NCBI GenBank assembly: GCA_036493895.1
Contig: DASXOZ010000011.1
Location: 626 to 64,625, forward strand
Direction of reading: 5' to 3'
Length of the DNA: 64,000 nucleotides
Source: Candidatus Binatia bacterium
GTDB taxonomy: Bacteria; Desulfobacterota; Binatia; UBA1149; CAITLU01
The notes beneath the pieces were generated by a model. That model did not search any database. It was not told where the DNA came from and was given only the letters and a program-made list of their open reading frames with translations. Every line of letters starts with the position of its first letter. Positions within the stretch are counted from its first letter, which is position 1. Shown here one piece after another: positions 4,451 to 40,840 of this stretch. A program made the position numbers and the translations under genes.

Positions 4451-4464
4451 AAGAACATGTTCTA
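4451..4464. promoter_or_regulatory. KstR-like palindromic operator, site A
   Basis: AAGAACATGTTCTA (minus strand TAGAACATGTTCTT), about 80-95 bp upstream of the amidohydrolase ATG. The 16-mer CAAGAACATGTTCTAG is identical at 29555-29570. Confidence 0.7.
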
Positions 4465-4525
4465 GTCGGGCAGACAAGGGCCGGCCTGGCGGCGGGGCCG
4501 TCGATCGATCGTGCGGGAGGAAGTT

Positions 4526-4561
4526 CCCGGGCCCGGGCCACCGCAGTGGCCCGCGCCCGGG
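4526..4561 (-). terminator. GC-rich stem-loop just downstream of giant protein 1
   Basis: cccgggc-c-cgggccac-cgca-gtggcccg-c-gcccggg: 15 bp with one mismatch, about 10 nt after the stop at 4572. The U-tract is weak. Confidence 0.45.
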
Positions 4562-4571
4562 GGGAAGGGGA

Positions 4572-7500
4572 TCAGCGGACCGACGTCGAAGAAGCCGTGC
4601 TGGCCGAAGCGCCACTGCCGTCGCTCACCGTCACGCTGACCGGCAGCGAAGTTCCGCTCGCGAGGCTGCTGGAGACCAGCGTCCTTACTTTCACCGATCC
4701 GCTCGCCGAGGCGAGGTTGCTGAAGACGACGTCGTTTCCGGAGACCGTCGCACCGTTCGGCGTCGTGCTTTGCTCGCTCATGCCGTCGGGCAGCGTCAGC
4801 ACCAGCGTTCCGGTGCCGGTGAGATTGGCGTAGTCGGCCGAGACGTCCGACGTCAGGCCGGACGTCACCGTCCGCGGCAGCGTCAGCGACACGGTTGGTC
4901 CCGACGCCGTCGAGCCGTCACGTACGATCGTCGAAGCCTGGCCGTTGTACGTCGTGCCGCTGCCGTCCAGCGCGGAGGCGGCGATCTGCAGCGTCGAGCC
5001 CGCAACCGCGCTCGAGCTGACGGCAACGCGCAGCTTGACCGATCCGCTGGTGTCCGTGAGCCGCCACTGCGCGCCGTCGGGCAGCAGCGACGCGCTCGGC
5101 ACGGCCAGCACCGGCGTCATCTCCGGCGGCAGTGTCATGGTCAGCGTCGAGGGACTCACCAGTCCCGAGTACGAAATCGCCACGTCGGTCGTCGTGCCCG
5201 GAGTCACCGAGCGCAGCGCCGTCACGTCGAGGGCCGGAGTGCCGGACCCGCCGCCCGTCGTGCCGAGGCCGATCACGGTCTGGGTCTCGGATGCAACGAT
5301 GGTGCCGGTCTCGTCGCTCATCGTCATGCTGCCGACGAGCACGGTGCCGGTGGCGACGTCCGCCGCGATCTGTGCGTCGATCTTGACCGACCCGGACGGG
5401 TCCATCAGGTCGCTGAACGTCAGGGTGCGCTCACTGCCACCGCTCGGCGCCGGCTGCGAGCGCAGCACCGTCACTTCGTCCGGCAGCGAGATCGTCAGCT
5501 GGTTGTGCCCGACGGCTTCGCGGTAACGCGCGGTGTAGCGCAGCGTCAGGCCCGCGCGACTGTAGGTCTGCGAGCGGATCGACGCGAACAGCTTGTTCGA
5601 CGCCGTGACGACGCTGGTCTGCTCGCACACGGCGTTGTTGCCCGCACCGTCGTTCATCGTCGCACTGCTCGGCAGCACGGTCTGGTCGGGAGCGAGCGGG
5701 CTCACCTGCGTGTTCACCTTCACCTTGCCGGCGGTGGCCGCGAGCGAGTCCCAGAACAGCGTCTGGCCCTGCTGCGCAGTCGGCGTCGGATAGGCGCTGA
5801 TGATCGTCACATCGTCGGGCATGGTCAGGTTGACCGAGTTGCTCTCCGAGCCGTTCTTGTAACGCAGCTCGTACTTCACGAAGCTGCCGGGCGTCGCGTA
5901 GATCTGCGCGCGCAGGAAGCACGACAGCGTAGCGCCGCCGGTGCCGTCGTCGCGCACGTGGAACACGTTGTCGGCGGTCGCGTAGTGCCCGGCCGGATCC
6001 GACAGCGTCGCGACGTTCAGGACCGACGCGCCGGAGCTCATCGTGGGATCGATCGTCGCGGTGATGAAGCCCTGGCCGACCGTGCCCGCCTTGAACGGGT
6101 CGGCAGTGAAGGTCGCAGTGTTGCCTGAGACGGACGCGGAGGCGTCGCCGGACGACGCCGACACGAGCGTCAGTCCCGCCGGCAGCGGATCGCTGATCGT
6201 CACGTCGGCCAGGTCGTCGGCGCACGCGTTCGACCATTGCAGCGTGTACTGGATCGTGCCGCCCGGGTTGTCGTTGCCCGAGTGCACCTTGCGCAGCGCG
6301 ACCGGGCAGAGGTCCGCCTGCGAACGCACGTTCAGCTTGTCGGTGGCCTCGGCCGACGGGATGCCGGCGGTCGTCAGCGACGCCGTGTTGACGATCGTCG
6401 TCCCCGGCTCGGTGCTGTCGGCGATGCGCACCGTGATCGTGCCCTGGCCGACGTCGCCGCCGCCCCACGAATCCATGTGGAACGTGACGGTGTTGCCGCT
6501 GATCGTCGTCGTCGCCACCGGCGACGAGGCCGACTCGACGGTCATGCCGCCCGGAATCGGATCGGTGACGTTCAGATCCGAGACCGGATTTCGGCACGAG
6601 TTCGACCACTGCAGCGTGTACGTGACCTCGCCGCCCGGCGTGGTATCGCCGGTGTGGGTCTTGCGCAGCGATGCCGCGCAGTCTTCGCAGACCTGGTTGG
6701 TCTGGCAGACCCCGGAAAGACAGGTATCGGGCTGGTCGCAGGAGCTGGAGGCCTGCGAACCGCACGCCGATCCGTCCGGCTTGAAGCCGTCGGACGGGCA
6801 AGAGCCGTTGCCGTCGCAGTTCTCGGCGACGTCGCACTCACCGGCGGCGAGGCGGCACACGATAGACGCGGATGCGTGATTGACCAGGCAGCTTCCCGAA
6901 CCGTCGCAGGTATCGGGTGCGTCGCAGATCGAGCTGCTCGAGCTTCCGCACGCGAAACCTGCCGAGCGGAAGGCGTCGGCAGGGCACGACGTCGAGGCGC
7001 CGGTGCAGTTCTCGGCGGCGTCGCACTGCGAAACCGCCGCGCGGCAGGTCGTGGCCGATGCCGCGAACGAATCGGCGGTGCAGGTGGCCGAGGCGCCGGT
7101 GCAGTTCTCGGCGACGTCACAGACACCGCCCGATCCGCGGCACACGGTCGTCGAAGCGACGAACGCGTCGGCCGGGCAGGACGCCGAGGCGCCGGTGCAG
7201 CTCTCCGCGACGTCGCAGACTCCCGCCGACGGGCGGCAGGCCGTGGTCGAAGAGGCGAACGTGTTGGCGGGACACGCGGCCGACGTGCCCGTGCAGTTCT
7301 CGGCAACGTCACAGATGCCGCCCGATGCGCGACACGTCGTCGTCGATGCGACGAACGAATCGGCGGGGCAGGCGCCGGAAGTGCCGGTGCAGTTCTCGGC
7401 CGGATCGCAGATTCCGGCCGACGGACGGCAGACGCTCGTCGATGCGGTGAACGAGTCGGCCGGACACGCTGCTGCGATGCCGCTGCAGTTCTCGGACGGA

Positions 7501-10500
7501 TCACAGATGCCGGTCGAAGCGCGGCACAGCGCCGCCGCCGACAGGAACGCGTCTCCAGGGCACGCCGCGGAAGTTCCGCTGCAGTTCTCGGCGGTGTCGC
7601 AGACTCCGGCGGAGGGGCGGCACGTCGTCGTCGAAGAGACGAACGCGTCGCCGGGGCAGGCGCCGGAGGTTCCGGTGCAGCTCTCGGCTACGTCGCAGAT
7701 GCCGCCGGATGCGCGGCACGTCGTCGTCGACGAAACGAACGCATCGGCAGGGCAGGCGGCAGCAGTGCCGGTGCAGCTTTCGGGCGTGTCGCAGACTCCC
7801 GTGGAGGTGCGACACGTCGTCGTCGACGAAACGAACGCGTCGGCCGGGCACGCGCCGGAGGTCCCGGTGCAGTTTTCGGCGACGTCGCAGACGCCGCCGG
7901 ATGCGCGGCATGTCGTCGTCGACGCGGTGAATGTATCGGCAGGGCACGACGCTGCGGTACCGGTGCAGCTCTCGGACGGGTCGCAGACGCCCGTCGATGC
8001 GCGGCACGTCGACGTCGAAGAGACGAACGCATCCGCCGGGCAGGCGCCGGAGGTTCCGGTGCAGTTTTCCGCAACGTCGCAGATGCCGCCGGATGCGCGG
8101 CAGACGGTCGTCGATGCGGTGAACGTATCGGCAGGGCACGCCGCTGCGGTTCCGCTGCAGTTTTCGGACGGATCGCAGACGCCGGTCGATGCGCGGCACA
8201 GCGTGGTCGACGCATCGAACGCATCGGCCGGACACGCGCCGGAAGTGCCGGTGCAGTTTTCGGCGACGTCGCAGACTCCGCCGCTCGGGCGGCACACCGT
8301 CGTCGATGCGGTGAACGTATCGGCGGGGCACGCCGCTGCGGTTCCGCTGCAGTTTTCGGACGGGTCGCAGACGCCGGTCGATGCGCGGCACGCGGTGGTC
8401 GAGGCGACGAAAGAATCGGCCGGGCATGTCGACGACAGTCCGGTACAGTTCTCGGCGACGTCACAGACGCCGCCCGAGGCGCGGCACGTGACGGTGGGAA
8501 GCGCGAAGAGGTCGAGCGGGCACGAGGCGAGCAGGCCGGTGCAGTTCTCGGCCACGTCGCAGATGCTGACCGCATCGCGGCAAACGGTGGCGGAGCTGAC
8601 CAGGACATCGGCCGGGCAGGTCGCCGAGGTTCCGGTACAGTTTTCGGCGACGTCGCAGACGCCGCCGGACGCGCGGCAAGTGGTAGTGGACGCGACGAAC
8701 GCATCGGCGGGGCACGCACCAGAAGTGCCGGTGCAGTTTTCGGCGACGTCGCAGACACCGCCGGACGCGCGGCAAACGGTCGTGGATGCCGCGATCGCAT
8801 CGGCGGGACATGCCGCGGCGGTTCCGGTGCAGTTCTCGGACGGATCGCAGACGCCGGTCGACGCGCGGCACAGCGTCGTCGATGCGACGAACGCATCGGC
8901 CGGGCACGCGCCGGAAATTCCGGTGCAGTTTTCCGCCACGTCGCAGACGCCGGCCGAAGCGCGGCACGTGACGGTGGGAAGGGCGAAGACGTCGAGCGGA
9001 CACGTCGCGAGCAGGCCGGTGCAGTTCTCCGACGGATCGCAGACGCCGGTGGATGCGCGGCACAACGTGGTCGACGCGACGAACGCGTCGGCCGGACACG
9101 TCGACGACGTCCCGGTGCAGTTTTCGGCGACGTCGCAGACGCCGGCGATTGAGCGGCAAAGAGTCGTCGATGCAGAGAACGCATCGGCAGGACAAGCGCC
9201 GGAAGTTCCGGTGCAGTTCTCGGCCACGTCGCAGACGCCGGTGGCTGCGCGGCAAGTCGCCGTCGAGGCGACGAACGAGTCGGCCGGGCACGCCGCTGCC
9301 GTTCCGGTGCAGTTCTCGGCCACGTCGCAGACGCCGGTCGATGCGCGGCACGCGGTGGTCGAGGCGACGAACGAATCGGCAGGACATGTCGACGACAGTC
9401 CGGTGCAGTTTTCGGCGACGTCGCAGACGCCGGCCGAGGCGCGGCACGTGACGGTGGGGAGCGCAAAGAGGTCGAGCGGGCACGAGGCGAGCAGTCCGGT
9501 GCAGTTCTCGGCGACGTCGCAGATGCTGACCGCATCGCGGCAATCGGTCGTGGAACTGGCCAGGGTTTCGGCCGGGCAGGTCGCCGAGGTTCCGGTGCAG
9601 CTCTCGGCGACGTCGCAGACACCGGTCGTCGCGCGGCACGTCGTCGTCGAAGACACGAAGGCGTCGGTGGGGCAGGCGGCGGAAGTTCCGGTGCAGTTCT
9701 CCGCGACGTCACAGACGCCGGCCGAGGCGCGGCACGCGGTGGTCGAGGCGACGAACGAATCGGCAGGACACGAGGCCGAAACCCCGGTGCAGTTCTCGGC
9801 AACGTCACAGATGCCACCCGACGCGCGACAGGTCGTTGTGGACGCGACGAAGCTGTCGGCGGGACATGCGGCCGAGGTTCCGGTACAGTTCTCGGCGACG
9901 TCGCAGACACCTCCCGAGGCGCGGCAGGTCGTCGTGGAGGCGACGAACGCATCGGCCGGGCACGCACCGGTCGTTCCGGTGCAGTTCTCGGCGACGTCGC
10001 ACACACCGCCCGTCGAGCGACAGACCGTCGTCGATGCGGAGAACGCATCGGCGGGACATGCCGTCGCAGTTCCAGTGCAATTCTCTGACGGATCGCAGAC
10101 GCCGGTCGATGCGCGGCACGCGGTGGTCGAGGCGACGAACGAATCGGCAGGGCATGTCGACGACAGTCCGGTGCAGTTTTCGGCGACGTCGCAGACGCCG
10201 GCCGAGGCGCGGCACGTGACGGTGGCAAGCGCGAAGAGGTCGAGAGGGCACGAGGCGAGCAGGCCGGTGCAGTTCTCGGCGACGTCGCAGATGCTGACCG
10301 CGGTGCGGCAGACGGTCGTGGATCCGGCAAGGGCATCGGCAGGGCAGGCCGCCGAAGTTCCGGTGCAGCTCTCGGCGACGTCGCAGACACCGGTCGTCGC
10401 GCGGCACGTCGTCGTCGAAGTCACGAAAGCGTCGGTGGGGCAGGCGACGGAAGTTCCGGTGCAGTTCTCCGCGACGTCACAGACGCCGGCCGAGGCGCGA

Positions 10501-12852: not shown

Positions 12853-12894
12853 GCGGCGGCTGCCGGCCCCGGATCCGGGCCCGGCAGCCGCCGC
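12853..12894 (-). terminator. GC-rich stem-loop just downstream of giant protein 2
   Basis: gcggcggctgccgg...ccggcagccgccgc forms a perfect 14-bp stem plus an inner stem, about 10 nt after the stop at 12904. No clear U-tract. Confidence 0.5.
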
Positions 12895-12903
12895 TGGGAT
12901 TGC

Positions 12904-21582: not shown

Positions 21583-21639
21583 CCGGAGTTCGTCCCGCCT
21601 CGTGTTTTTTGACAGATTTGTTCCCAAGGAGACCCGAGC

Positions 21640-22512: not shown

Positions 22513-22516
22513 AGCG

Positions 22517-23599: not shown

Positions 23600-24529
23600 C
23601 TACTTGATTGCCAGGGGGTTGATCGGGGAGCCGATGCCGCCGGTGACTCGCAGGGGCGGCGCGGTCAGCAGGAAATCCCAGCACCCGTCGGCTTCGCAGT
23701 CGCGGGCGAGCTCGTCGAGTTCGAACATCTCGCCGAACGGCATTCCCATGTCGCGGATGCACAGCAGGTGAAGCGGATACAGGAGCGAAGGATCCTCGCA
23801 CGGCATCACTTCGACGGCGGTCGTGTCGGAGCAGACCGCGGCAAGATCGCGCTCACGGATCCATTCGGCGGCGTCGAGGCCGAGACCGGGGCCCTGCCAG
23901 AGGTAAGTTTCGCGGTCCCCGTCCTTCGTGAACACCGAAAGGTGACCGGTGCGAAGCACGAGGATGTCGCCGGGCAGAAGCCGGCAGCCCTGGGCGGCAA
24001 GCGCGTCGTCGAGCTCCGAGGGGCGGATCGCAGTGCCGGGCGCGATGCGTTCGACGCCGCGATGGCGGGCCAGGTCGACGAGCACTCCGCGTGAGACGAT
24101 GCCTGGCGACGCAAGCTTGTCGATGCCGTTGCGCGTGGCGCCGCCGGCGCCGAGGTGCTCGCCGGCCGCATAGCCGTTGTAGAGCTTCCCGTCGTAGTGC
24201 ACGTGCGCGAGGCTGTCCCACTGCGTGGACGATTGCAGCGGCAGCGACAGCACGTCGTCCGAGTAGCAGAAGCCGCGCGGGTCTTCGCCGATCAGCGTGC
24301 CGATCGCGGTCATGTAGTGCTGGGGATTGAAGCGGCCGATTACCGATCCGGTCTGCGGCCCTTCGGGCCCGAGCGAGAGGCCGAGACTGAAGACGTCCCC
24401 GCGCCGCACGCACGCCACCGCGCGCCGGACGACCTCGGGCGTGATCAGGTTGAGCGTGCCGCGCTCGTCGTCGGCACCCCAACGCCCCCAGTTCGAAACC
24501 TTCCCCGCAATATCCCGGACTCTTTTCAT
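23600..24529 (-). CDS. Cyclase family protein (kynurenine formamidase-like metal hydrolase)
   Basis: SNWGRWGADDERGTLN, STQWDSLAHV, GIVSRGVLVDL, GDILVLRTG, GEMFELDELA, GIGSPINPLAIK. Confidence 0.9.
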   Translation of the reverse strand: MKRVRDIAGKVSNWGRWGADDERGTLNLITPEVVRRAVACVRRGDVFSLGLSLGPEGPQTGSVIGRFNPQHYMTAIGTLIGEDPRGFCYSDDVLSLPLQSSTQWDSLAHVHYDGKLYNGYAAGEHLGAGGATRNGIDKLASPGIVSRGVLVDLARHRGVERIAPGTAIRPSELDDALAAQGCRLLPGDILVLRTGHLSVFTKDGDRETYLWQGPGLGLDAAEWIRERDLAAVCSDTTAVEVMPCEDPSLLYPLHLLCIRDMGMPFGEMFELDELARDCEADGCWDFLLTAPPLRVTGGIGSPINPLAIK

Positions 24530-24540
24530 AACTCTTGTGT

Positions 24541-24581
24541 AATGGGGTCAGGCACCACAGGAATAGTGCCTGTCCTCATTC
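24541..24581. repeat. REP-like inverted doublet abutting the LLM stop codon
   Basis: aatggggtcaggcac-cacaggaata-gtgcctgtcctcattc; near-identical to the last unit plus inverted arm of the 25975-26163 array. Confidence 0.8.
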
Positions 24582-25820
24582 CTAGTAGTGGAACTCCGGA
24601 AGCACCTTGGTGACGAACAGCTCGAGCTGCTCGGCCTGCACGTCCATCGGCACCGTGCCCTGGTAGAAGAAGTTCCACGAGATCCACTCGAGGTCTCCAT
24701 CGCCGTGGCACTTGACCAGTGCGGCAAGCTGCTTCTTGACGTCGTCGATGGTGCCGCAGAGCTGGTAGCCGCGGTCGATCATCCTCTGCGTCGCCGCGTG
24801 CTCGTCCTTGAACTTCAGCGGCATGATCGCCTTGTCGTCGTCTGGAGTGCGGAACACTTCGCCGAAACCGAACAGGTTGAAATAGTGGTGGTACTCGTAC
24901 CCGGTCGTGCGCGCGGCCAGCTCGAAGGCCTCTTCGCGCGTCTTGCCGATCGTGATCGCGCGCACGGCACCGAGCCTCTGCCCGAGCTTCAGGTCGTGGC
25001 CCGCCTTGGCCGCTTCGCTCTGGTAGAGCTTCGCCCACTTCTGGAAGCCCTGCGGCGAAGCTTCGAAGATCCACGGGAGGATCCCGCGACGGGCGCAGTC
25101 GATCAGTGATTTTTCCGACAGAGTAAACGGCGCCCAGATCGGAGGATGAGGGTGCTGGTACGGCCTCGGCACGACGCCGATCTTGCGAATCACGCCGTTG
25201 TCGTCGATCTCGCCGGGCGCTCCGTACTTGCGCGTCCACTCCGGAGCCGCCCAGCCGTCGATTCCGGAGAAAGGGAAGGGAACCTTGTAGTGTTGCCCGT
25301 CGTACGAGAAGCAGTCCTCGGTCCAGGCCTTCTGCACGATCTCGAGCTTCTCGTCGTACACGTCGCGGTTGGCGGCGTCGCCCTTGTCGCCCATGCCGGT
25401 CGCCGACTCGGCACCTTGGCCTAGCACTTTCATCCACTTCTTCTGGTAGCCACGCGCGAACGCGACCGCGACGCGGCCCTTGGTGAGCTGGTCGAGGATC
25501 GCGATGTCTTCGGCAACGCGGATCGGATCGGCCGTCGGCAGCACCACCGACATCGGCGCGAATGTAATTTGCTTGGTGCGCGCCGCGAAGTCCGCGTACA
25601 GCAGCACCGGGTTGACCGAGACCTCGCCGCCTTCGGTGTGGAAGTGGTGCTCGGTGGTCGAGAACGCGTCGACGCCGAGCTCGTCGGCGTGGATGACCAG
25701 GCGTCGCAGCTCCTCGAGCATCATCTGGTAGCGCTCGGTGTTGCGCCCGATCGGCCGCAGCGAGCTGCGCTCCTCGTTGGTGGACGGAATGGTGGGCATC
25801 GCGAACAGGTCGAGCTTCAA
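24582..25820 (-). CDS. LLM-class flavin-dependent oxidoreductase (luciferase-like monooxygenase)
   Basis: TTG start with GAGGAG SD; FSTTEHHFH, DPIRVAEDIAILDQLTKGRV, PRPYQHPHPPIW. Confidence 0.9.
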   Translation of the reverse strand: MKLDLFAMPTIPSTNEERSSLRPIGRNTERYQMMLEELRRLVIHADELGVDAFSTTEHHFHTEGGEVSVNPVLLYADFAARTKQITFAPMSVVLPTADPIRVAEDIAILDQLTKGRVAVAFARGYQKKWMKVLGQGAESATGMGDKGDAANRDVYDEKLEIVQKAWTEDCFSYDGQHYKVPFPFSGIDGWAAPEWTRKYGAPGEIDDNGVIRKIGVVPRPYQHPHPPIWAPFTLSEKSLIDCARRGILPWIFEASPQGFQKWAKLYQSEAAKAGHDLKLGQRLGAVRAITIGKTREEAFELAARTTGYEYHHYFNLFGFGEVFRTPDDDKAIMPLKFKDEHAATQRMIDRGYQLCGTIDDVKKQLAALVKCHGDGDLEWISWNFFYQGTVPMDVQAEQLELFVTKVLPEFHY

Positions 25821-25884: not shown

Positions 25885-25898
25885 TGGAACGTGTTCTA
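25885..25898. promoter_or_regulatory. KstR-like palindromic operator, site B
   Basis: TGGAACGTGTTCTA, a full match to TnnAACnnGTTnnA, 65-78 bp upstream of the LLM start at 25820. Confidence 0.7.
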
Positions 25899-25948: not shown

Positions 25949-26163
25949 TGGGGACAGGCACTATGCCATTGCTTGAATGGGGTCAGGCACCAGAGGAATG
26001 GGGTCAGGCACCACAGGAATGGGGTCAGGCACCAGAGGAATGGGGTCAGGCACCACAGGAATGGGGTCAGGCACCAGAGGAATGGGGTCAGGCACCAGAA
26101 GAATGGGGTCAGGCACCACAGGAATGGGGTCAGGCACCACAGGAATGGTGCCTGACCCCATTC
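25949..26163. repeat. REP-like element array: one variant arm, eight tandem 21-bp units, one inverted arm
   Basis: TGGGGACAGGCACTA at 25949. GAATGGGGTCAGGCACCA(G/C)A(G/A) x8 starting at 25975, 25996, 26017, 26038, 26059, 26080, 26101 and 26122. Inverted GGTGCCTGACCCCATTC at 26147-26163 overlaps the VOC stop codon. Confidence 0.92.
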
Positions 26164-26632
26164 AGAGCGGCTTGCCGAAGGGGATGTAGGGATCGCCGGG
26201 GATTTCTACCAGCTCGACCAGGGTGCCGTCGGGGTCGGCGACGAACACGAGGCGAGAGCCGTACGCGGGATAGTCGGTCCGCGTCGAGTCGAGCACCGTG
26301 ACCGACGCCTCGCGCATCTTCGCGAGCGTCGCGTCCAGGTCGTCCACGCGCAGCATGATCGCAGCCAGCCCCGTGCGGTTCATCTGTCGCGGAGGATCCG
26401 GCGGCGGCGACTTCGGCGCGCGGAACTCGAACAGCGCCAGGCGCACGCCGTCGCGCTCGAGGAAGACGGTGGTCTGATCGACGCCGCGAAGACCGAGAAG
26501 CCGGTCGGCATCCTCGCCGCGGACATCCGTCTGCGTCATCGCGCGAAAGCCGAGCAGGTCACGATAGAACGGAACCGACCGGGACAAGTCGGAGACGCAG
26601 ATGCCGATGTGACCGAAACGAACGACTGCCAT
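26162..26632 (-). CDS. VOC (glyoxalase/bleomycin resistance/dioxygenase) family protein
   Basis: FGHIGICVSDLSRSVPFYRDLLGF, LALFEF, FVADPDGTLVELVE. Confidence 0.9.
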   Translation of the reverse strand: MAVVRFGHIGICVSDLSRSVPFYRDLLGFRAMTQTDVRGEDADRLLGLRGVDQTTVFLERDGVRLALFEFRAPKSPPPDPPRQMNRTGLAAIMLRVDDLDATLAKMREASVTVLDSTRTDYPAYGSRLVFVADPDGTLVELVEIPGDPYIPFGKPL

Positions 26633-26666
26633 GGGTGATGGTTGCTCCGCCGCAGGTACGGTCGCT

Positions 26667-27953
26667 TCAGGCCGCGGGGAAGCGCTCCCGCAGCCACGCC
26701 GCGATGATCTTCATTGCGCCCGCTCGTCCGGTCGCGCCGGGCTTGCACTTCGGAGGCAGCCCGAGGTGGTCGCCGTCGACGTAGTGCATCTGCTTGTCGC
26801 GCGCCCCCGAAGCCGCATGGACCGCCTCGAGGTCCGAAATCCACACGACGTTGTCGCTCGTGTAGCTGATGACCAGCGTCGGCGCCTGGATCTTCGGGAT
26901 GCACTCGAGCGTGGACGCGCGCGACGAGAGTCCGGACCAGGTCGACAGCCACGCGCGCGGCGTCTGGATCTTGCCGAAGCCCGCCTCGAGCGAATTGAAG
27001 ATGTCGGGCCGCGGCGAGAAAAATGACCCGTAGTCGCGCTCGGACGCGTGCAGCGAAAGGTCGCAATACGCCGGATTGGCCTCGGTGCGGTGGATCTCCA
27101 TGAAACGCCCGCAGAAGGCGCGACGCCAGACGAACTGCTTCTGCTTGAGGCTCAGGCCCTCGAAGGCCTCGTCGCCCATTTCTCGCTGGTGGTGGCGCTG
27201 CACCTCGATGTAGCTGCGTGCGATCGCGTCGACCCGGGCGACGCGACCTCGCTGCGCGGAGCGGTAGCGCGCGAGGAACTCCTCGCTGTAGCTGCTCGAA
27301 GCGTCGGGTTCCCGAAAGCCGTTGTCCGGGTTGAACATGTCGAGGCCGGGATCGACCGACAGCGGCCCGTCCTCGCGGATCACGGAAGGGTCGATGCACG
27401 TCAGCATCAGCGCGCCCTGCCCGAGATGCGTGGCGAGCTGCACGATGCCGTCGGCAACGGGCATCTCGAAGGCATTGAGGTCGTAGGGGTCGCCGGCAGC
27501 GGTCGTCGTCAGTCGATCCGGCGGCGCCGTGGCTGCCTGGGACTGGTAGAACGTGTACAGCGCGCCGCCGCCGCTGTTGCCGAGCAGCACGATGCGCTCG
27601 AAGCCGCGCTTCTTCAGCTCGCGCATCGAAGCGGCGATGTCGGTGATCAGCATCTCGTGAATCAGGCCGATGTCGTTGTTGACCCAGCGTCCGGCCTGGC
27701 CGAACGCCGCGTAACCTGCGTCGAGCAGCGCCGGAATCGCGTAGTGGCGGCTCATGTCGCCGCGCGGATGCATCATGCAGACGACGGTGCGCTCGCCGCC
27801 TCGCGTGTAGAGTACGCCGTGCGACTCGCCTCGGTCCTGGGCCAGCAGCGGAATGTTTTCGATCGTCACGCCCGAAGGCAGCGAGTCGAAGGACCACAGG
27901 CTGGGCCCGAGCTGGGGATAGCGAAGGAGCTGGATCGCCACGGCCGCGTTCAC
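26667..27953 (-). CDS. Alpha/beta-hydrolase fold protein
   Basis: LLGNSGGG nucleophile elbow and C-terminal YVDGDH. The GTG start overlaps the upstream TGA (GTGA coupling). Confidence 0.75.
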   Translation of the reverse strand: MNAAVAIQLLRYPQLGPSLWSFDSLPSGVTIENIPLLAQDRGESHGVLYTRGGERTVVCMMHPRGDMSRHYAIPALLDAGYAAFGQAGRWVNNDIGLIHEMLITDIAASMRELKKRGFERIVLLGNSGGGALYTFYQSQAATAPPDRLTTTAAGDPYDLNAFEMPVADGIVQLATHLGQGALMLTCIDPSVIREDGPLSVDPGLDMFNPDNGFREPDASSSYSEEFLARYRSAQRGRVARVDAIARSYIEVQRHHQREMGDEAFEGLSLKQKQFVWRRAFCGRFMEIHRTEANPAYCDLSLHASERDYGSFFSPRPDIFNSLEAGFGKIQTPRAWLSTWSGLSSRASTLECIPKIQAPTLVISYTSDNVVWISDLEAVHAASGARDKQMHYVDGDHLGLPPKCKPGATGRAGAMKIIAAWLRERFPAA

Positions 27954-29068
27954 CCGCCCTGGATGAGCTGCACGGCGCTGCGTGCCGTCGCGCGAGCTTC
28001 GGGGGCGATGGCAAGCGGCTTTACCGCGTCGATGTTGACCGCCTGCAGGTCGTAGTACGAAATCGCGTCCCAGTGCTGCTCGGCCATCGCGCGCGCCTCT
28101 TCGCCCGGGCCGTGCACGGAGCCGCGCGGATGCACCATGAAGGTGGCGCGCAGCATCGGCGCTCCCATCATCGTGCCGTCGTGCAGGAACCCGATCTCGT
28201 CGTAGTCCATGTTGCGGTGGTAGTACGGAAGCCGCGCGGTACCGCGCTCCATCTCCGCCGGCCGCGGCACGAAGTTGCAGATCACCCAGCCCGTTCCCTG
28301 GAACAACGCGAACGCCGTCGGCGGCACGTGGTTGCGGTCGCTCACCACCGCGCGGAAGTCGAGGTTGTGGAAACGGAACGGAAACAGGTCTCCCTTCCAG
28401 CCGACGACGTCGAGAGGATGGTGCGCGTAGAAGAACGACGTGAACGCGCCGCAGCGCTTGACGCGCACTTCGTATTCGGCGCGGCCGTCGTTGGCGTAGG
28501 CCGTGGGCTCAGGGATGCCGAGAACGGTCGGATCGTAGGGGTTGTGGCGCCCGAGCAGCGTGTGCTCGGCCAGCGTCACCTCGCCGCTGCTTTCCAGATG
28601 CAGGAAGTAGTTGTCGCGGGTCGACGGAACGACTCGAAAAGTGACACCCTTCGGGAGCACGATGTAGTCGCCGGGCTTGAAATCCAGGGGTCCGAACTCG
28701 GTTTCGACCACGCCTTCGCCGCGGTGGGTGAACCAGATCTCATCGCCGTCGGCATTGCGGTACCAGTACGGCATCGGCTCGCTGCGGCGGCTCACCGAGA
28801 TCACCAGGTCGTCGTTGTAGAAACAGCGCGTGGGGCGCCCGCGCGAGTCGCTGCGATCGTCGGCGTCGATCTTCTGGCCGTCCAGGTCCAGCGGCGCGAA
28901 ATCGCCCTCGACCCGGGTCCACGCCGTCGGCTCGTTGCGGCGGTACATTTCGGCCACTCGGCCCTGGAAGCCTCCGCGCCCGATCTCCTCTTCCTTCAGG
29001 CCCGACGGAACCCGCACGTGGGCCTGCTTCGGAACTTCGCCCTTGCTCAGGTGGATCCAGGACTTCAC
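27950..29068 (-). CDS. hmgA: Homogentisate 1,2-dioxygenase-like cupin dioxygenase
   Basis: YRNADGDEIWF, HHPLDVVGWKGD, PYYHRNMDYDE and VHGP (His/Glu/His iron ligands). GTG start at 29068 is coupled to the NTF2 gene stop. Confidence 0.75.
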   Translation of the reverse strand: MKSWIHLSKGEVPKQAHVRVPSGLKEEEIGRGGFQGRVAEMYRRNEPTAWTRVEGDFAPLDLDGQKIDADDRSDSRGRPTRCFYNDDLVISVSRRSEPMPYWYRNADGDEIWFTHRGEGVVETEFGPLDFKPGDYIVLPKGVTFRVVPSTRDNYFLHLESSGEVTLAEHTLLGRHNPYDPTVLGIPEPTAYANDGRAEYEVRVKRCGAFTSFFYAHHPLDVVGWKGDLFPFRFHNLDFRAVVSDRNHVPPTAFALFQGTGWVICNFVPRPAEMERGTARLPYYHRNMDYDEIGFLHDGTMMGAPMLRATFMVHPRGSVHGPGEEARAMAEQHWDAISYYDLQAVNIDAVKPLAIAPEARATARSAVQLIQGG

Positions 29069-29487
29069 GAGAACAGGGTCCTTTGTGCGTAGAGCGTGTC
29101 CACGTACTCCTTGACGCCTGCGATCTTGCGATCCGCTTCGCCCGGGCCGCCGCGAACCTCGAACAGGAAATGGTAGAAGTTCGAGTAGTCGGCGCCTTTG
29201 GCGGTCGTCGCGCAGATGTGCACTTCGACGGCGACCTTGTGCTCGTCGGCGACCATGCCGAGGATCTCGATTTTCATCGGCTTGGGCGCATACAGCGACA
29301 CGCCCTTGGCGAACATGCCGAGCACGGCGTCCTTTCCTTTGTAAGTACCGGCCATCGGCGACGAAGGCGGCACCCACCAGGTGACGTCGTCGGCGAAGGC
29401 GGCGACGACCTTGTCGCTGGCTCCGCTGGAGACCGCGTCGAAATAATCGCGGATCAGCTTCTTGTTCGCTTCGGGGGTGGATGCCAT
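29065..29487 (-). CDS. NTF2/SnoaL-like (ketosteroid isomerase-like) protein
   Basis: NKKLIRDYFDAV, FADDVTWWVPP, YSNFYHFLFEV, KEYVDT. Confidence 0.85.
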   Translation of the reverse strand: MASTPEANKKLIRDYFDAVSSGASDKVVAAFADDVTWWVPPSSPMAGTYKGKDAVLGMFAKGVSLYAPKPMKIEILGMVADEHKVAVEVHICATTAKGADYSNFYHFLFEVRGGPGEADRKIAGVKEYVDTLYAQRTLFS

Positions 29488-29555: not shown

Positions 29556-29569
29556 AAGAACATGTTCTA
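29556..29569. promoter_or_regulatory. KstR-like palindromic operator, site C (divergent promoter)
   Basis: AAGAACATGTTCTA, identical to site A, centred between the NTF2 ATG (29487) and the O-methyltransferase ATG (29647). Confidence 0.7.
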
Positions 29570-29646: not shown

Positions 29647-30318
29647 ATGTCGGAAACTCCGAAAGCCTTTCACCTGACTCCCCGGATCCAGAAGTACGTC
29701 GTCGACCACAGCGCCGCGGTCGACGAAGTGCAGCGCTCGCTCATCGCCGAGACGGAGGGCCTGGGGTTCATTTCGATCATGCAGATCTCGCCGGAGCAGG
29801 GCGCGTTCATGGAGCTGTTCGCGCGCGCGATCGGCGCTCGCCGCATCATCGAGGTCGGCACTTTCACCGGTTACTCCGCGCTGTGCTTCGCGCGCGCCCT
29901 GCCCGAAGGCGGCAAGCTGCTGTGCTGCGACATCAGCGAAGAGTGGACCTCGATCGGACGTCGCCACTGGGAAAAGGCCGGCGTCGCCGGACGCATCGAG
30001 CTGAAGATCGCTCCTGCCGGCGAGACCCTCGCCGCGCTTCCGGCCGATCCTGTCTGGGACCTCGCGTTCATCGATGCCGACAAGGGCGGCTACCGGACCT
30101 ACTACGAAGAGATCCTCGAGCGCCTGAGACCGGGCGGCGTCATTCTCGTCGACAACGTGCTGTGGATGGGAACCGTGGCCGATCCGACGATGGCAGGCGA
30201 AGACGTCGAAGCGATCCGCGCGTTCAACGACTTCGTCGCGTCCGACTCGCGTGTCGAGGTTGCAATGCTGACGATCGGCGACGGTCTTTCGATGATCCGC
30301 AAGAAGGGAGGCCACTGA
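29647..30318 (+). CDS. SAM-dependent O-methyltransferase (caffeoyl-CoA OMT-like)
   Basis: MQISPEQG, IEVGTFTGYSAL, DLAFIDADK, LVDNVLW. GAGGAG SD. Confidence 0.92.
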   Translation: MSETPKAFHLTPRIQKYVVDHSAAVDEVQRSLIAETEGLGFISIMQISPEQGAFMELFARAIGARRIIEVGTFTGYSALCFARALPEGGKLLCCDISEEWTSIGRRHWEKAGVAGRIELKIAPAGETLAALPADPVWDLAFIDADKGGYRTYYEEILERLRPGGVILVDNVLWMGTVADPTMAGEDVEAIRAFNDFVASDSRVEVAMLTIGDGLSMIRKKGGH

Positions 30319-31322
30319 TGGAGCTGGGATTGATGGTCGGCTATTGGCAGGGCGGCGGTCCCTGGGATTTCGTCACGCACGCGCAACTTGCCGAGAGCCT
30401 GGGCTTCGAGTCGGTGTGGACGGCCGAAGCGTACGGGTCCGACGCGTTTTCTCCGCTTTGCTGGATCGGCGCCCACACGTCGCGGATCAAGCTCGGGACC
30501 GGCGTCTGCCAGATTTCCGCGCGCACGCCCGCTTGCGTCGCGATGACGGCAACTACCATCGATCACATGTCGGGCGGGCGGCTGATCCTCGGAATCGGCG
30601 TGTCCGGGCCGCAAGTGGTCGAGGGCTGGTACGGGATGCCGTTCGCGAAGCCTTTTACCCGCACGCGCGAGTTCATCGAGATCCTGCGCGCGATCTGGAA
30701 GCGCGAGGGGCCGGTTACCTACGAAGGCAAGTACTACCAGCTTCCGTATGGCGGCCCCGGCTCGGTGGGTCTAGGCAAGCCGCTGAAATCGATCACGCAC
30801 CCGCTGCGCGAGCGCATCCCGATCTATCTCGGCGCCGAAGGCCCGAAGAACGTCAGGATGGCCACCGAGATCGCCGACGGCTGGCTGCCGCTGTTCTTCT
30901 CGCCGTACCGGCCGGAGGTGTACGCCGAGTCGCTGTCGCTCGTAAAGCCGGGCTTCGAGATCGCGTGCACTGCGCAGGTCGTCGTCGGCGACGACGTCGC
31001 GAGCTGCCTCATCCCGGTCAAGTGGATGCTCGCGTTCTACATCGGCGGCATGGGCGCCAAGGACAAGAACTTCCACATGAACATCATGGGACGCATGGGC
31101 TTCGAGGCCGAGGTCACCGAAGTGCAGCGCCTCTTCCTCGAAGGAAAGCGCGCCGAGGCGGCCGACGCGGTGCCAGACCAGCTTGCCGACGAGATTTCCC
31201 TGGTCGGCCCGCCGGGACGCATCAAGGAAAGGCTCGAGGCCTGGAAGAAGAGCCCGGTGACGAAGCTGCTGGCGGGAACCCAGGATCCGAACGCACTGCG
31301 CGCGCTGGCAGCGGCGATGTAG
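30318..31322 (+). CDS. LLM-class oxidoreductase, probably F420-dependent
   Basis: WTAEAYGSDA, GTGVCQISARTP, LGIGVSGPQVVEGWYG, IYLGAEGPKN. The ATG overlaps the upstream TGA. Confidence 0.9.
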   Translation: MELGLMVGYWQGGGPWDFVTHAQLAESLGFESVWTAEAYGSDAFSPLCWIGAHTSRIKLGTGVCQISARTPACVAMTATTIDHMSGGRLILGIGVSGPQVVEGWYGMPFAKPFTRTREFIEILRAIWKREGPVTYEGKYYQLPYGGPGSVGLGKPLKSITHPLRERIPIYLGAEGPKNVRMATEIADGWLPLFFSPYRPEVYAESLSLVKPGFEIACTAQVVVGDDVASCLIPVKWMLAFYIGGMGAKDKNFHMNIMGRMGFEAEVTEVQRLFLEGKRAEAADAVPDQLADEISLVGPPGRIKERLEAWKKSPVTKLLAGTQDPNALRALAAAM

Positions 31323-36653: not shown

Positions 36654-36669
36654 CCCGGCGGCGTCGCCG

Positions 36670-37302: not shown

Positions 37303-37948
37303 TCGGATGCTCCGCAAAGCCCCGCAGCCATGCGGTCACTCCGCCAGCGAGATCCGCGACGCCGACCACGCGCGCGTCGCGCTGTTCGAGAATCGACGCG
37401 CTGCGGTCGCGCGCGTGAACGGTGACATCGTCGATGACGAAGTCGATGCCGGCAAGACTCTCCAGCGGCATGTCCCATCCGTCTACGTTTGCAATGGCCC
37501 CGCGGCGCGCGATCACCGCGAGCAGCCGCGGCGGCGCGAACAGCGCAAGCGTCGTCGAGAGCACGCCGCCTTGCCCGTCGCCGCCGAGCACGAACGGGCG
37601 CTCGAGCGCGAGGACGAAATTTTCGACCTCGCCGATCGCATCGGCGAAGCTCGCCGCTTCGGGCCGCTCGTGATCGTCGCCGAGGTACCACGAAAATCCG
37701 GCGTAGGAATCCGACGAGCGAAGGTTGCTCTGCATCGGGTTGCAGGGACGCGCGGCCTGCAGCGCGAAGATGTCCGGCTCGCTTCCAGCCAGGGTGCGCG
37801 CGTCGCCAAGTCCGCCGCCGGCGTCGCCGCCGCGCGCATGCAGCCAGACGACGACCGGAAGAAGGTCACCGGCGCTTCCCGCCGAGTGGGAGCGAAGGAG
37901 CGAGCAGTCCGGCGCAGGGCCGGAAGTCGGGCGCCCTGGCGGGTTCAG
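37295..37948 (-). CDS. Phospholipase/carboxylesterase-like alpha/beta hydrolase homolog lacking the catalytic Ser; probable CTG start
   Basis: VVWLHARGGD, GFSWY and FVLGGDGQGG (canonical GFSQGG). There is no ATG/GTG/TTG in frame after the upstream stop, but CTG at 37948-37946 overlaps that TGA with AAGGA upstream. Confidence 0.6.
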   Translation of the reverse strand: MNPPGRPTSGPAPDCSLLRSHSAGSAGDLLPVVVWLHARGGDAGGGLGDARTLAGSEPDIFALQAARPCNPMQSNLRSSDSYAGFSWYLGDDHERPEAASFADAIGEVENFVLALERPFVLGGDGQGGVLSTTLALFAPPRLLAVIARRGAIANVDGWDMPLESLAGIDFVIDDVTVHARDRSASILEQRDARVVGVADLAGGVTAWLRGFAEHPNG

Positions 37949-39741
37949 TCGATTTCCTTGACCGGCGCGGCCGCCGCGCCCTTTCCTGCGAGCATCGCGA
38001 ACGTGATCGCCGGTCCGAGGGTGCCGCCGCCGCCGTAGTAGTACTGGCCGGTCGGCGACGCGATGCAGTTGCCGGCACCGTACAGGCCCGCGATCGGCTC
38101 GCCGTCGGCGCCGAGCACCTGCGCGCTCGCGCTGGTCGCCGGACCGCCGTTGGTGTCGAGCGTCCCGGCCGCAAGGATGATCGCGTACAGGTGACCGGTC
38201 GGGTCGATCGGATGCATCGTCGGATTGAGCGTCTGGCCGATTGCCTGCGAGGTGCCCTGGTTCGGATACGACCAGACGTGCGAGAACCAGAGGCGGTCGT
38301 AGAGTTTCTCGCCGCGATGGAAGTCGACGTCGATGCCGTGGCCGGCAAACTCGTTGTAGCGCTTGAAGGTCGTCGACAGCGTTGCGGCGAACCCTTCGTC
38401 GAGCCGTACGCCGCCGGTCTTCGGCGCGAGCCTCAGCAGACGCTGGTCGATCGCGTCGGCCAGCTCCTGGGGGTTGGCACCGGTGATCACGTACGGTGCC
38501 TGGGTTCCGGCCGGCGGGATCGGGAAACGTCCGCCGAACAACTCGGCGCTGCGCTGGTCGTAAACCATCAGCATCAGCATGTTCGGCCATTCGTGCCGCG
38601 AAGGATCCCACGCAAAATGCACGCGCGTGCGCTCGTTGTAGTTCGAGCATTCGTTGACGACGCGGCGCCCGTAGCGGTTGACGAGGACCATCGAGTCGCC
38701 CGGCGGCATGAAGACGTCGTCGGGAGTGCTCGAGAACTGCAGCGCCTGCTCGAGCACGATCTCGGCGCGCCACGCCGAGCTCATGTTGCCGAGGCGCGCT
38801 CCTGCGGCGGTGGCCATGTAGACGAAGTCGCCTTCGTTGGTCGGCACCGCGCAGCCGCCGAAGATCGGTCCGGGCTGGAACGCCGTGGTCAGCTCGCGAT
38901 TCTGCGTGAAGCCGCCGCTTCCGAACACGACGCCTTTTTTGGCGCGAAGCCGCACGATCGTCTTGTCGATCTTTTCCGCCTCGATGCCGACGACCTCGCC
39001 GGCGTGGTTGCGAAGGATCGTCACGACACGGTGGCCCATCAGCGTCGCGATCTTGCGCGAGTCGATCGCGGCCCTGAGCTGGCGGACCATCTCGTCGCCG
39101 AGCCCGAACGAGCCGTCGGGTTTTTTCGCCCACAGGCGCCGGTCCACCGGCGTGATGTCGTCGACGGCTTCTTCGAAGTAATCGGGCATCGCGCCGAACG
39201 GCGGCATGTCGGCCGGCTGCGAGATCAGCGCTTTCATGTTCTCGAGCTCGTCGACGACGACGGGGCCGTTGTCGTAGAGGGCTTTGAGAAGGTCGTACTG
39301 GAGCTGGGAGAGGCCGAGCGTCTTGTCGTCGGCGCGAAAGAGCTGGGGATACGAAAAGCGCGCCATCTTCGCGATCGTCTTGTCGCGAGGCTCTTCGACG
39401 CCGCGCTCGCGCAGGAAGCGGTTGTTCGGGATCCAGTAGACTCCGCCGGACTTCGACGTCGTGCCGCCGAACAGCAGGGCCTTCTCGACGAGGGCCACCG
39501 ACGCACCGGCCTCGTGCGCGAACAGCGCCGCGACCGATCCCGCCGCGCCGCTGCCGACGACGACGACGTCCACTTCCTGGTCGAACTTGAGCTTGTCGGC
39601 GGCGCGGGCCTCGCGCACGCCCGGCAGCGTAGCGGCGCCGGCACCGGCGGCGGCCACGCCCGCGAGCCTCAGAAAGTCACGGCGAGAAATTCCCGGACGC
39701 GCCGGCGGCGCGCCCCCTGCTGCGGAGCTGTCGTCGTTCAC
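37945..39741 (-). CDS. Tat-exported FAD-dependent oxidoreductase, 3-ketosteroid-delta1-dehydrogenase (KstD)-like
   Basis: SRRDFLRLAG twin-arginine signal; DVVVVGSGAAG, GGTTSKSGGVYWIPNN, VNRYGRRVVNE, GTLDTNGG, GLYGAGN, GGTLGPAITF. Confidence 0.85.
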   Translation of the reverse strand: MNDDSSAAGGAPPARPGISRRDFLRLAGVAAAGAGAATLPGVREARAADKLKFDQEVDVVVVGSGAAGSVAALFAHEAGASVALVEKALLFGGTTSKSGGVYWIPNNRFLRERGVEEPRDKTIAKMARFSYPQLFRADDKTLGLSQLQYDLLKALYDNGPVVVDELENMKALISQPADMPPFGAMPDYFEEAVDDITPVDRRLWAKKPDGSFGLGDEMVRQLRAAIDSRKIATLMGHRVVTILRNHAGEVVGIEAEKIDKTIVRLRAKKGVVFGSGGFTQNRELTTAFQPGPIFGGCAVPTNEGDFVYMATAAGARLGNMSSAWRAEIVLEQALQFSSTPDDVFMPPGDSMVLVNRYGRRVVNECSNYNERTRVHFAWDPSRHEWPNMLMLMVYDQRSAELFGGRFPIPPAGTQAPYVITGANPQELADAIDQRLLRLAPKTGGVRLDEGFAATLSTTFKRYNEFAGHGIDVDFHRGEKLYDRLWFSHVWSYPNQGTSQAIGQTLNPTMHPIDPTGHLYAIILAAGTLDTNGGPATSASAQVLGADGEPIAGLYGAGNCIASPTGQYYYGGGGTLGPAITFAMLAGKGAAAAPVKEID

Positions 39742-39750
39742 GCGCCGATC

Positions 39751-40722
39751 TCAGGCTGCAGCGGCGGCGCCGGTCGGCGCCGAGTAGAACTGCCGCGTCC
39801 ACTGGCGGTACTCCCCGATCGGGCCGTCGGATTCGCAAAGGGCCGGCCGCGCCTGGAATCCCTTGTGTTCCCAGATCTGGAAGTCCTGCTGGATCGCCAG
39901 CGACTGGTCGTCCATGTACAGCTTGAGCAGCGCGCGCGTCTCGTCTTCGCTGCGGCCGTCCTTCTTGCCGATCACGCCGAAATGGATGCGCGTGATCTCG
40001 TCGTCGACCGGCGTGAGCCCTGCGACGATCACCGTCGTGAACATCCCGGAGTAGATCAGCCAGTCGAACCCGAGCCCCCAGTTCTGCGCCTGGATGTTGA
40101 AGTCGTCGCTGACGCCGCCCATCGTCTGCACGTCCTTGCGCGTCCAGATCGCCCACTTGAACATGTGCTGGTGGAATTCGTGGGAGCGATTCTTCGGCGC
40201 GTCCATCAGGTGCACGAAGTTGAAGTGGGGCCAGTCGATCGCGTTCTCCATGATGTCCTGGGGATGCGTGCGGACGTCCCAGGAGTATTTGTCGTAGCTG
40301 GAGGTCCAGTCGTCGGCGCCGAAGTACTCGATCGCCGGGATCTCGAAATCGGGCGCCGCGCCTTCGGCGTGGTACCAGACGAACACGAGCCCGCTGTGCT
40401 CGAGCACCGGGTAGGCGCCGGCGCGCGCCTTGGCGGGAATCTTGTCGGTGTACGGGATGTGGCGGCAGGTGCCGCCGGTATCGAACTGCCAGCTGTGGAA
40501 GGGACAGACGAGGCGGTTGCCTTCGACTTTTCCGCCATACCCGAAGTGGGCGCCGAGGTGAGGGCAGAACGGCTCGAAGGCCCCGGCTTTTCCGTCTTCG
40601 CCGCGGAACAGCACGATGTCGCGGCCGAGGTAGTGGACGGTCTTCACTTCGCCTTTGGCAAGCTCGTCCGAATAGCAGACCTGGTACCAGCTGTTGGGGA
40701 TGCCGAACGGAAATCGGGCCAT
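39751..40722 (-). CDS. Rieske non-heme iron oxygenase, KshA/sterol-oxygenase-like
   Basis: CPHLGAH...CPFHSW Rieske motif and ENAIDWPHFNFVH mononuclear iron motif; starts MARFPFGIPNSWY. Confidence 0.88.
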   Translation of the reverse strand: MARFPFGIPNSWYQVCYSDELAKGEVKTVHYLGRDIVLFRGEDGKAGAFEPFCPHLGAHFGYGGKVEGNRLVCPFHSWQFDTGGTCRHIPYTDKIPAKARAGAYPVLEHSGLVFVWYHAEGAAPDFEIPAIEYFGADDWTSSYDKYSWDVRTHPQDIMENAIDWPHFNFVHLMDAPKNRSHEFHQHMFKWAIWTRKDVQTMGGVSDDFNIQAQNWGLGFDWLIYSGMFTTVIVAGLTPVDDEITRIHFGVIGKKDGRSEDETRALLKLYMDDQSLAIQQDFQIWEHKGFQARPALCESDGPIGEYRQWTRQFYSAPTGAAAAA

Positions 40723-40748
40723 CGCGATGAACCTCCGGGGCAGATACG

Positions 40749-40763
40749 TGGGGTCAGGCACCA
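40749..40763. repeat. Single REP-like arm
   Basis: TGGGGTCAGGCACCA, identical to the core of the 24541 and 25975 elements, in the 5' leader of the Rieske gene. Confidence 0.7.
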
Positions 40764-40826
40764 GCGGCCACGTGCGCAATCACGCCTCGGTGGATAGCTG
40801 GCGTCGGACCCCGGATTTCGCCCATA

Positions 40827-40840
40827 TAGAACGTGTTCCA
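40827..40840. promoter_or_regulatory. KstR-like palindromic operator, site D (divergent promoter)
   Basis: TAGAACGTGTTCCA, a full match to TnnAACnnGTTnnA, between the Rieske gene and the SDR-crotonase-MFS operon. Confidence 0.72.

Follow-up and report, generated by a model that had tools for sequence, protein, structure and literature searches.

Can an operator known from cholesterol catabolism in Actinobacteria also serve catabolic genes in a diderm bacterium of another phylum, and if so, which protein binds it there? This question is raised by a stretch of 64,000 nucleotides from the genome of a Candidatus Binatia bacterium (GenBank assembly GCA_036493895.1, contig DASXOZ010000011.1, positions 626 to 64,625 of the forward strand), which we call the window. 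A preliminary description of this DNA, made from its letters alone, had drawn attention to four AT-rich palindromes of 14 bp and had proposed that they form a regulon resembling that of KstR, the actinobacterial cholesterol repressor. We find a real regulon with a KstR-type operator outside the Actinobacteria, conserved in dozens of related genomes, and we propose a likely identity for its repressor.

The pattern WRGAACNNGTTCYA starts in the window at 4451, 25885, 29556 and 40827, exactly where the palindromes had been placed. It gives six strand-matches, whereas 0.04 are expected from shuffled sequence, and the count was equalled by none of 100 shuffles of the window. Site A (4451..4464, AAGAACATGTTCTA) lies 80 bp 5' of g4, a gene on the minus strand, and site B (25885..25898, TGGAACGTGTTCTA) lies 64 bp 5' of g11, likewise on the minus strand. 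Site C (29556..29569, again AAGAACATGTTCTA) occupies the divergent gap between g15 and g16, 68 and 77 bp from their starts, and site D (40827..40840, TAGAACGTGTTCCA) the divergent gap between g27 and g28, 104 and 152 bp from theirs. Intergenic DNA makes up 6.8% of the window, and all four sites are found there (chance P ~2e-5); the identical 16-mer that had been noticed in A and C is CAAGAACATGTTCTAG. Because the window has a G+C content of ~67%, genes were called with a codon-usage score; they were annotated with Pfam and NCBIfam. On this gene map, the sites serve six transcription units with start codons 64-152 bp away, and the earlier placement of the palindromes at catabolic promoters holds for all six.

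The KstR palindrome, TAGAAC(N2)GTTCTA, overlaps the -10 region in part, and 47 KstR sites in M. tuberculosis and M. smegmatis have been tabulated (Kendall et al. 2007, PMC1995591). The published core TnnAACnnGTTnnA is matched in full by sites B and D, and sites A and C differ from it solely at position 1, where they have A for T; the preliminary description was correct on this point as well. When the window is scanned with a symmetric weight matrix made from the 47 mycobacterial sites alone, sites B and D (24.7 bits each) and sites A and C (21.5 bits each) are the top four, and the fifth sequence reaches 15.4 bits. The leave-one-out scores of the mycobacterial sites themselves range from 10.7 to 26.0 bits, with a median of 23.1, and A-D lie inside this range. 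The same matrix finds no match of at least 20 bits in 1.93 Mb of unrelated fetched loci from Sphingomonadaceae, Actinomycetota, Polyangia, Parvibaculaceae and Gammaproteobacteria. The 14-mers of B and D are even identical to tabulated M. smegmatis KstR sites, that of site B being the site of MSMEG_0305/0306. In relatives, the half-sites vary in the same way as in mycobacteria (TAGAAC, TGGAAC, TGAAAC, and TGTAAC), and between relatives the central dinucleotide changes and the arms stay constant. At the level of sequence, sites A-D are indistinguishable from KstR boxes. The window also has two weaker box-like sequences within coding DNA, TGGAACACGTTGTC at 5959-5972 (15.4 bits, in the giant gene g5) and TGGAACCCGTTCGA at 55445-55458 (13.0 bits, in tamB), which are probably due to chance.

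Conservation in related genomes had been proposed as a check, and its outcome is clear: all four sites are kept in the orthologous promoters of Binatia-type metagenome-assembled genomes (MAGs), in which the flanking sequences have diverged. Site A is kept 5' of the g4 orthologues of four genomes, including one Myxococcota-labelled MAG (L070, L072, L090, and L173); in the MAG CAYYZO01 (L067), the gap between g7 and g4 contains 100 N at 15591-15690, precisely at the expected place of site A. Site B is kept before g11 in L068, L069, L070, and L072, and is missing only in two genomes that retain no more than 9-23 nt between g12 and g11; there g11 has become part of the upstream operon, and the site has gone together with its intergenic promoter region. 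Site C is kept in L067, L070, and L071, the last with a changed central dinucleotide and unchanged arms. Site D is kept in L001, L003, L004, L005, and L082, and L002 has a TGTAAC variant of 23.2 bits.

For site D, a metagenome scan with the KshA-like gene g27 added 46 loci, or 424 kb. Exactly one box is present in 34 of the 34 loci that share at least 59% identity and include upstream DNA, always in the same orientation and 37-206 nt before the start, and in none of the four loci with upstream DNA that are at most 54% identical. Besides these site-D boxes, the sole match of at least 16 bits in the 424 kb is a 17.8-bit box, TAGAACGCGTTCCC, at 20545-20558 of L182, a metagenome contig of 947 kb from a relative at 78% identity. 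This second box lies just 5' of a gene for a membrane-anchored short-chain dehydrogenase/reductase (SDR) similar to g19, and g19 of the window (32393-33562) has no box upstream, so the membership of the regulon differs between lineages. In the relatives, the units are gathered in one cluster of ~25 kb, and in six genomes a fifth box precedes a second KshA-like paralogue. Compared with four related genomes, the window has two giant genes inserted between g7 and site A.

The position of the boxes within their promoters is also suggestive. A putative core promoter of g27 extends over 40823..40852 on the minus strand, with a -35-like TTGCAC at 40847-40852 and a -10-like TATATG at 40823-40828. The operator takes up the spacer between the two hexamers and extends by two bases into the start of the -10-like one. 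In an alignment of 37 unique orthologous site-D promoters, a conserved hexamer (cTTGtCa/TTGCAC) lies 6-8 nt 5' of the box, and the terminal TA of the box runs on as TAAT(T/C)N or TATAWN, which places site D between a -35-like TTGNCN and a -10-like TAWWNN. Site A likewise has a -35-like TTGTCT 7 nt upstream in the orientation of the gene, and this TTGTCT-N7-box layout is seen in three genomes. A layout with the operator in the spacer, as it appears to exist at site D, fits a repressor.

From these observations we regard it as very likely that sites A-D are the operators of one shared transcription factor. The mechanism that we propose is as follows. A single dimeric repressor, encoded beyond the window and acting in trans, would bind all four palindromes. 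As the operators would lie within or beside core promoters, the bound dimer would block RNA polymerase at the six units, to which the relatives would add a seventh, that of the second KshA-like paralogue. The repressor would most likely belong to the TetR family and have a DNA-binding domain of KstR type, and it may be released by an intermediate of the pathway, possibly an acyl-CoA. The units under its control would serve to open rings in a substrate of alicyclic, terpenoid or steroid-like nature. Taken as a whole, a trans-acting dimeric repressor from outside the window, most likely a TetR with such a domain, has in our judgement a slightly better than even chance of being the explanation of the sites.

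Which protein binds the boxes is the point at which opinions may differ. The narrower proposal, that it is a true member of the KstR family encoded elsewhere in the genome, seems to us evenly balanced. The main rival to it is a shared repressor from outside the KstR family, that is, a TetR of a different subfamily or a helix-turn-helix protein of a different family that recognizes the same GAAC-N2-GTTC palindrome by convergence or through old shared ancestry of the DNA-binding domain; we consider this possible and rather unlikely. The two were weighed with a KstR query sequence that is 100% identical to PDB 5AQC and with a family hidden Markov model (HMM) made from KstR and 85 representatives, which was run on all open reading frames of the window and of ~230 fetched loci. 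A KstR-family TetR combines PF00440 with PF17925 and has the AVQMR...GTLYRYFPSK domain.

Several results weigh against the mechanism proposed above, and the first two of them speak for the rival. Neither phmmer nor the HMM finds a KstR-family TetR in the window or in the related DNA around the regulon genes, which amounts to ~0.45 Mb from Binatia-type genomes and 0.42 Mb from metagenomes. In large protein searches, cluster representatives, a cluster look-up and a tblastn search of PLSDB, every named KstR-family match belongs to the Actinomycetota (19 of 19 matches in PLSDB). A strict scan for the sigma-70 consensus called no promoter at site C or D, and no enzyme of the window passes a steroid-specific NCBIfam cutoff. 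The best HMM matches are weak and cover the DNA-binding domain only, with 74 bits in L082 and 47 bits in L186; the search for a TetR with a KstR-like recognition helix, which the preliminary description had recommended, thus came back empty from the window and ~0.9 Mb of related loci. The rival can also appeal to unrelated TetR genes that adjoin boxes in single genomes, namely at 2347-3114 of L082 (divergent from site D), at 12029-12754 of L173, and in L186.

On the other hand, none of these TetRs is met again in other genomes, and their recognition helices do not resemble that of KstR. The match to the KstR box spans all 12 specified positions together with the same set of tolerated variants. 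Members of the KstR family that are only 36-48% identical overall also keep a nearly invariant DNA-binding domain. We examined three distant metagenomic members of the family, and all have boxes of at least 17.7 bits nearby. In two of them (L225 and L226) the regulator gene itself has the box at its start: P0200 has a 23.5-bit box 38 nt before the gene, and P0167 a 17.7-bit box at its start. The third, P0416 (L227), has boxes of 23.4 and 18.1 bits ~7.5 and 9 kb upstream, before other genes of the same gene run. No link to Binatia-type DNA was seen for the three. Because distant members of the family keep both the domain and a box nearby, the box is a good predictor of a KstR-type domain. We place a KstR-family TetR ahead of an unrelated protein.

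Individual candidates found beside the boxes were rejected. The TetR genes of single genomes (L082 at 2347-3114 and at 19964, L173 at 12029-12754, L186, L182, and L217) are mutually non-orthologous and not KstR-like. An AraC-family gene between g2 and the box labelled site E in L070 is not conserved, and AraC-type proteins are unexpected at a 14-bp dyad.

The preliminary description had also supposed that the repressor may be encoded elsewhere. This agrees with the absence of a cognate repressor from the window, although that description had overlooked a TetR gene, g9 (22517-23200), which forms an operon with a CbiX-like gene and a gene for a luciferase-like monooxygenase (LLM). It is very improbable that g9 encodes the repressor of the four sites (TAGAACNNGTTCTA). 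In its favour, the conserved cluster has no other regulator gene, and L067, L069, and L070 retain g9 at 72-77% identity in the interval between sites A and B. However, Pfam finds only TetR_N in g9 and no TetR_C_20, KstR is absent among its 44 PDB matches, and both the KstR phmmer search and the family HMM miss it. Its recognition helix, SHPAILHHFGSR, differs from the VGTLYRYFPSK of KstR, and its own operon has no box upstream. Orthologues of g9 at 69-72% identity stand beside g16 and g13 in L089 and L091, where the fetched loci (14-17 kb) have no box. Furthermore, the DNA-binding segment DVGVSHPAILHHFGSR is near-constant in ~70 homologues from Polyangia and Parvibaculaceae, none of which has a KstR-type box, and 44 of these homologues have a palindrome of their own, ACT[TG]ACA-N4-TGT[AC]AGT, 30-200 nt before the gene. 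Such a palindrome is present neither in the window, where the best score is 5.8 bits at 21606, nor in the Binatia loci. The sequence of g9, the boxless loci of its orthologues and homologues, and the distinct palindrome of its family together led to its rejection as the regulator. Polyangia and Parvibaculaceae have many members of the family with the helix SHPAILHHFGSR (loci L094-L165).

That the palindromes are no protein operators at all, and instead promoter elements, remnants of repeats or products of chance, is scarcely credible: the promoter could account for part of the conservation, since the right half extends into a -10-like element, and the window does hold a dispersed repeat of repetitive extragenic palindromic (REP) type, but the dyad is kept in both arms over the 37 diverged promoters, no role in promoters is known for the left arm, the sites share no sequence with the GGGGTCAGGCACC repeat, the numbers given above for shuffled and control DNA speak against chance, and a stem of 6 bp with a loop of 2 nt would not be expected to form a stable RNA hairpin. 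The LexA/Cheo box is GAAC-N4-GTTC. A reading of the sites as LexA/Cheo boxes was set aside, since the half-sites are spaced differently there and genes for catabolism are the targets here.

What, then, do the boxes control? Unit A (707..4370, minus strand) consists of g4, an Amidohydro_2 protein (3174-4370), g3, an SDR (2353-3117), and g2, an acyl-CoA ligase (707-2338). Unit B (23600..25820, minus strand) consists of g11, an FMN-type LLM (24582-25820), and g10, a putative cyclase (23600-24529). To the left of site C, on the minus strand, is a unit (26162..29487) of g15, a SnoaL/NTF2-like protein (29065-29487), g14, an HgmA-like cupin (27950-29068), g13, a hydrolase-like protein (26667-27953), and g12, a VOC/glyoxalase protein (26162-26632). 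To its right, on the plus strand, a unit (29647..31322) contains g16, a class I O-methyltransferase (29647-30318), and g17, an F420-dependent LLM of the Rv3520c family (30318-31322). To the left of site D, on the minus strand, is a unit (37945..40722) of g27, a KshA-family Rieske oxygenase (39751-40722), and g26, a flavoprotein similar to cyclohexanone dehydrogenase (37945-39618). The unit to its right, on the plus strand (40993..45418), contains g28, an SDR (40993-41778), g29, a MenB/BadI-like crotonase (41809-42603), g30, an MFS transporter (42600-43829), and g31, which has no assigned function (43826-45418).

Among these genes, g27 bears out the KshA-like Rieske oxygenase that had been announced for this locus. 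It combines a Rieske domain (PF00355, 1e-24) with KshA_C (PF19298, 4e-41), and its top PDB matches, which extend over the full length, are the KshA structures 4QDC, 4QDF, and 2ZYL (2e-39 to 4e-35). It scores below every NCBIfam equivalog cutoff; by its domains and structural matches it is a true KshA-family protein. The supposed KstD-like flavoprotein g26 had to be renamed, since it is far nearer to the cyclohexanone dehydrogenase of Alicycliphilus denitrificans (8AM8, 2.5e-118) than to KstD (1e-37), and it reaches only 229 bits against the KstD equivalog, for which the cutoff is 789. With 442.5 bits, g17 exceeds the cutoff of 335 bits for TIGR03559, a family of F420-dependent LLMs that takes its name from Rv3520c, and this membership implies that coenzyme F420 is used in the Binatia-type lineage. 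In M. tuberculosis, the Rv3520c/Rv3521 promoter has a validated KstR site (PMC1995591). KshA and the Rv3520c-type LLM are two families of the cargo that are KstR-regulated in that species.

Other enzymes resemble those of alicyclic pathways. In NCBIfam, g29 scores 260 bits to BadI and g2 scores 212 bits to cyclohexanecarboxylate-CoA ligase, and g28 and g3 score well to hydroxy-cyclohexanecarboxylate dehydrogenases, all below the curated cutoffs. The best scores of g2, g3, and g28 are to long-chain, steroid or cyclohexanecarboxylate CoA ligases or to hydroxy-acid dehydrogenases, and these too remain under the cutoffs. Because the steroid-specific cutoffs are not reached, a steroid is merely one option among alicyclic substrates. 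In addition, the Pfam annotation shows no hsa, mce4, fadE, or cyp gene in the window. The regulon of steroid, terpenoid or lipid catabolism that had been suggested stands as far as conserved operators at catabolic genes are concerned. The cargo is not the canonical cholesterol pathway; judged by the families of its enzymes, it looks like a pathway that opens rings oxidatively and has an alicyclic, terpenoid or steroid-like compound as its substrate. It should be mentioned that a further Rieske domain is encoded 3 kb from the right-hand unit of site D, in a fusion of the Rv3818 type with a metallo-beta-lactamase fold and SCP2 (48086-49672), which has no box upstream. The nearest relatives of g11 beyond the Binatia-type clade are found in Actinomycetota, at 51-59% identity (Solirubrobacterales, Pseudonocardia, Paraconexibacter; L073-L085), and none of them has a KstR-type box within 10 kb; this pattern hints at an exchange of genes between phyla that was not tied to the operator.

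Compared with known systems, the closest likeness is to the KstR regulon of M. tuberculosis, M. smegmatis, and Rhodococcus. Both share the 14-bp palindrome TAGAAC(N2)GTTCTA with its tolerated variants and score range, the placement of boxes in divergent gaps overlapping the -10 region (putative here), the dispersal over several operons, and a set of genes that includes a KshA-family oxygenase, an Rv3520c-family F420 LLM, SDRs, LLMs, and an acyl-CoA ligase. They differ in that the host here is a Binatia-type diderm and not an actinobacterium, no kstR was found in the window or the loci searched and the cluster has the unrelated TetR g9, and the window is without mce4, hsa, fadE, and cyp and has a desaturase of the cyclohexanone-dehydrogenase type rather than KstD. 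In other words, this is a known operator in a new phylum, with a different cargo and an unlinked regulator.

KstR2, which controls the catabolism of the C and D rings in Actinobacteria, has the operator AnCAAGnnCTTGnT. Its regulon resembles the one described here in having a TetR repressor, a 14-bp palindrome with a 2-nt centre, and ring-degrading genes, including the MenB/BadI-like ring hydrolase EchA20, which is comparable to g29. However, its half-site is CAAG rather than GAAC, and the sites of the window do not fit the KstR2 pattern. Among diderms, EdcR is the TetR repressor of oestradiol degradation in the alphaproteobacterium Caenibius tardaugens (PMC8700777). It is likewise a TetR-type repressor of steroid catabolism with palindromic operators that overlap the -10 of several promoters (PMC8700777), but its operator TnnCnnTACnAnTnGTAnnGnnA is unrelated, and the EdcR gene is inside its cluster and has an operator of its own. 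Alicyclic pathways offer a third comparison through the cyclohexanone dehydrogenase of A. denitrificans (PDB 8AM3, 8AM6, and 8AM8) and through BadI, ChcB, and ChcC, to which g26, g29, g28, g3, and g2 are related by the scores given above. All NCBIfam scores of the window genes on this side are below the cutoffs, and control by a KstR-type box is not known for these pathways. In reviews, KstR is counted among the very few known regulators of steroid catabolism and is placed in actinobacteria, and a paper of 2021 assigns both KstR and KstR2 to actinobacteria. A full-text literature search returned no paper joining KstR with Binatota; papers pairing Binatota with 'steroid' contained nothing that bears on KstR, and two papers examined among those naming KstR, Proteobacteria and steroid do not report KstR outside Actinobacteria.

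The diderm host outside the Actinobacteria, which had been read from the sequence, is confirmed in two ways: TamA, TamB, and MdoG are encoded in the window and indicate a diderm, and the closest genomes, at a protein identity of 67-90%, are MAGs labelled Candidatus Binatia, although some members of this clade are labelled 'uncultured Myxococcales' or 'Deltaproteobacteria'. The JGI metagenome contig Ga0376682_0000153 matches the window from position ~9800 through to its last letter, and the 8.8 kb of this contig past the end of the window contain imuA/imuB/dnaE2 and no TetR. A mutagenesis cassette of an imuA-like gene, imuB (IMS), an 813-aa protein without assigned function, and dnaE2 extends over window 62910-63998 and L065 1-9907 and adjoins a Crp-family regulator (62085-62816) and a MocR-type regulator (60515-62074). 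The other end of the window leads into another giant adhesin-like gene. The truncated gene at 2-337 (minus strand) is the signal-peptide end of a third giant Disintegrin-type protein; the first two are encoded by giant minus-strand reading frames at 4572-12968 and 12904-20046, with at least 2580 and 2051 aa, 28 and 23 matches to the Pfam Disintegrin domain, and DUF11. A homologue is carried by L069, and it is unusual for bacteria to have Disintegrin arrays as large as these. The interval from g12 to site B contains, at 25975-26159, 8.3 tandem copies of the 21-nt unit GAATGGGGTCAGGCACCACAG followed by an inverted copy, and the 13-mer core GGGGTCAGGCACC of this unit occurs once in each of two other intergenic regions, at 24544-24556 and at 40750-40762, the latter 65 nt from site D. 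This repeat looks like a REP-like dispersed element.

What might these observations mean for the history of the regulon? Our tentative view, held at somewhat short of even confidence, is that a KstR-type repressor-operator system is widely conserved in an uncultured diderm phylum, the Binatota, together with neighbouring lineages labelled 'delta/Myxococcota'. The regulator gene would be unlinked, and the system would govern a non-canonical ring-opening pathway that functionally parallels the actinobacterial 9,10-seco route with mostly non-orthologous parts, namely a KshA-like oxygenase, a desaturase similar to cyclohexanone dehydrogenase, monooxygenases of flavin and F420 type, a cupin dioxygenase, and a BadI-like hydrolase. 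If this is true, it would be the first KstR regulon outside the Actinobacteria, and it would follow that either the regulator and its operators were transferred together between phyla or the pair arose much earlier. If the binding protein is not KstR-like, two regulators would have converged on an identical 14-bp operator. The finding is relevant to the ways in which regulator-operator pairs spread from one phylum to another or endure in several of them. The operators are also a ready experimental handle, and, in a phylum without cultured members, the box defines a co-regulated catabolic set that helps to assign functions to otherwise anonymous SDR, LLM, and Rieske genes.

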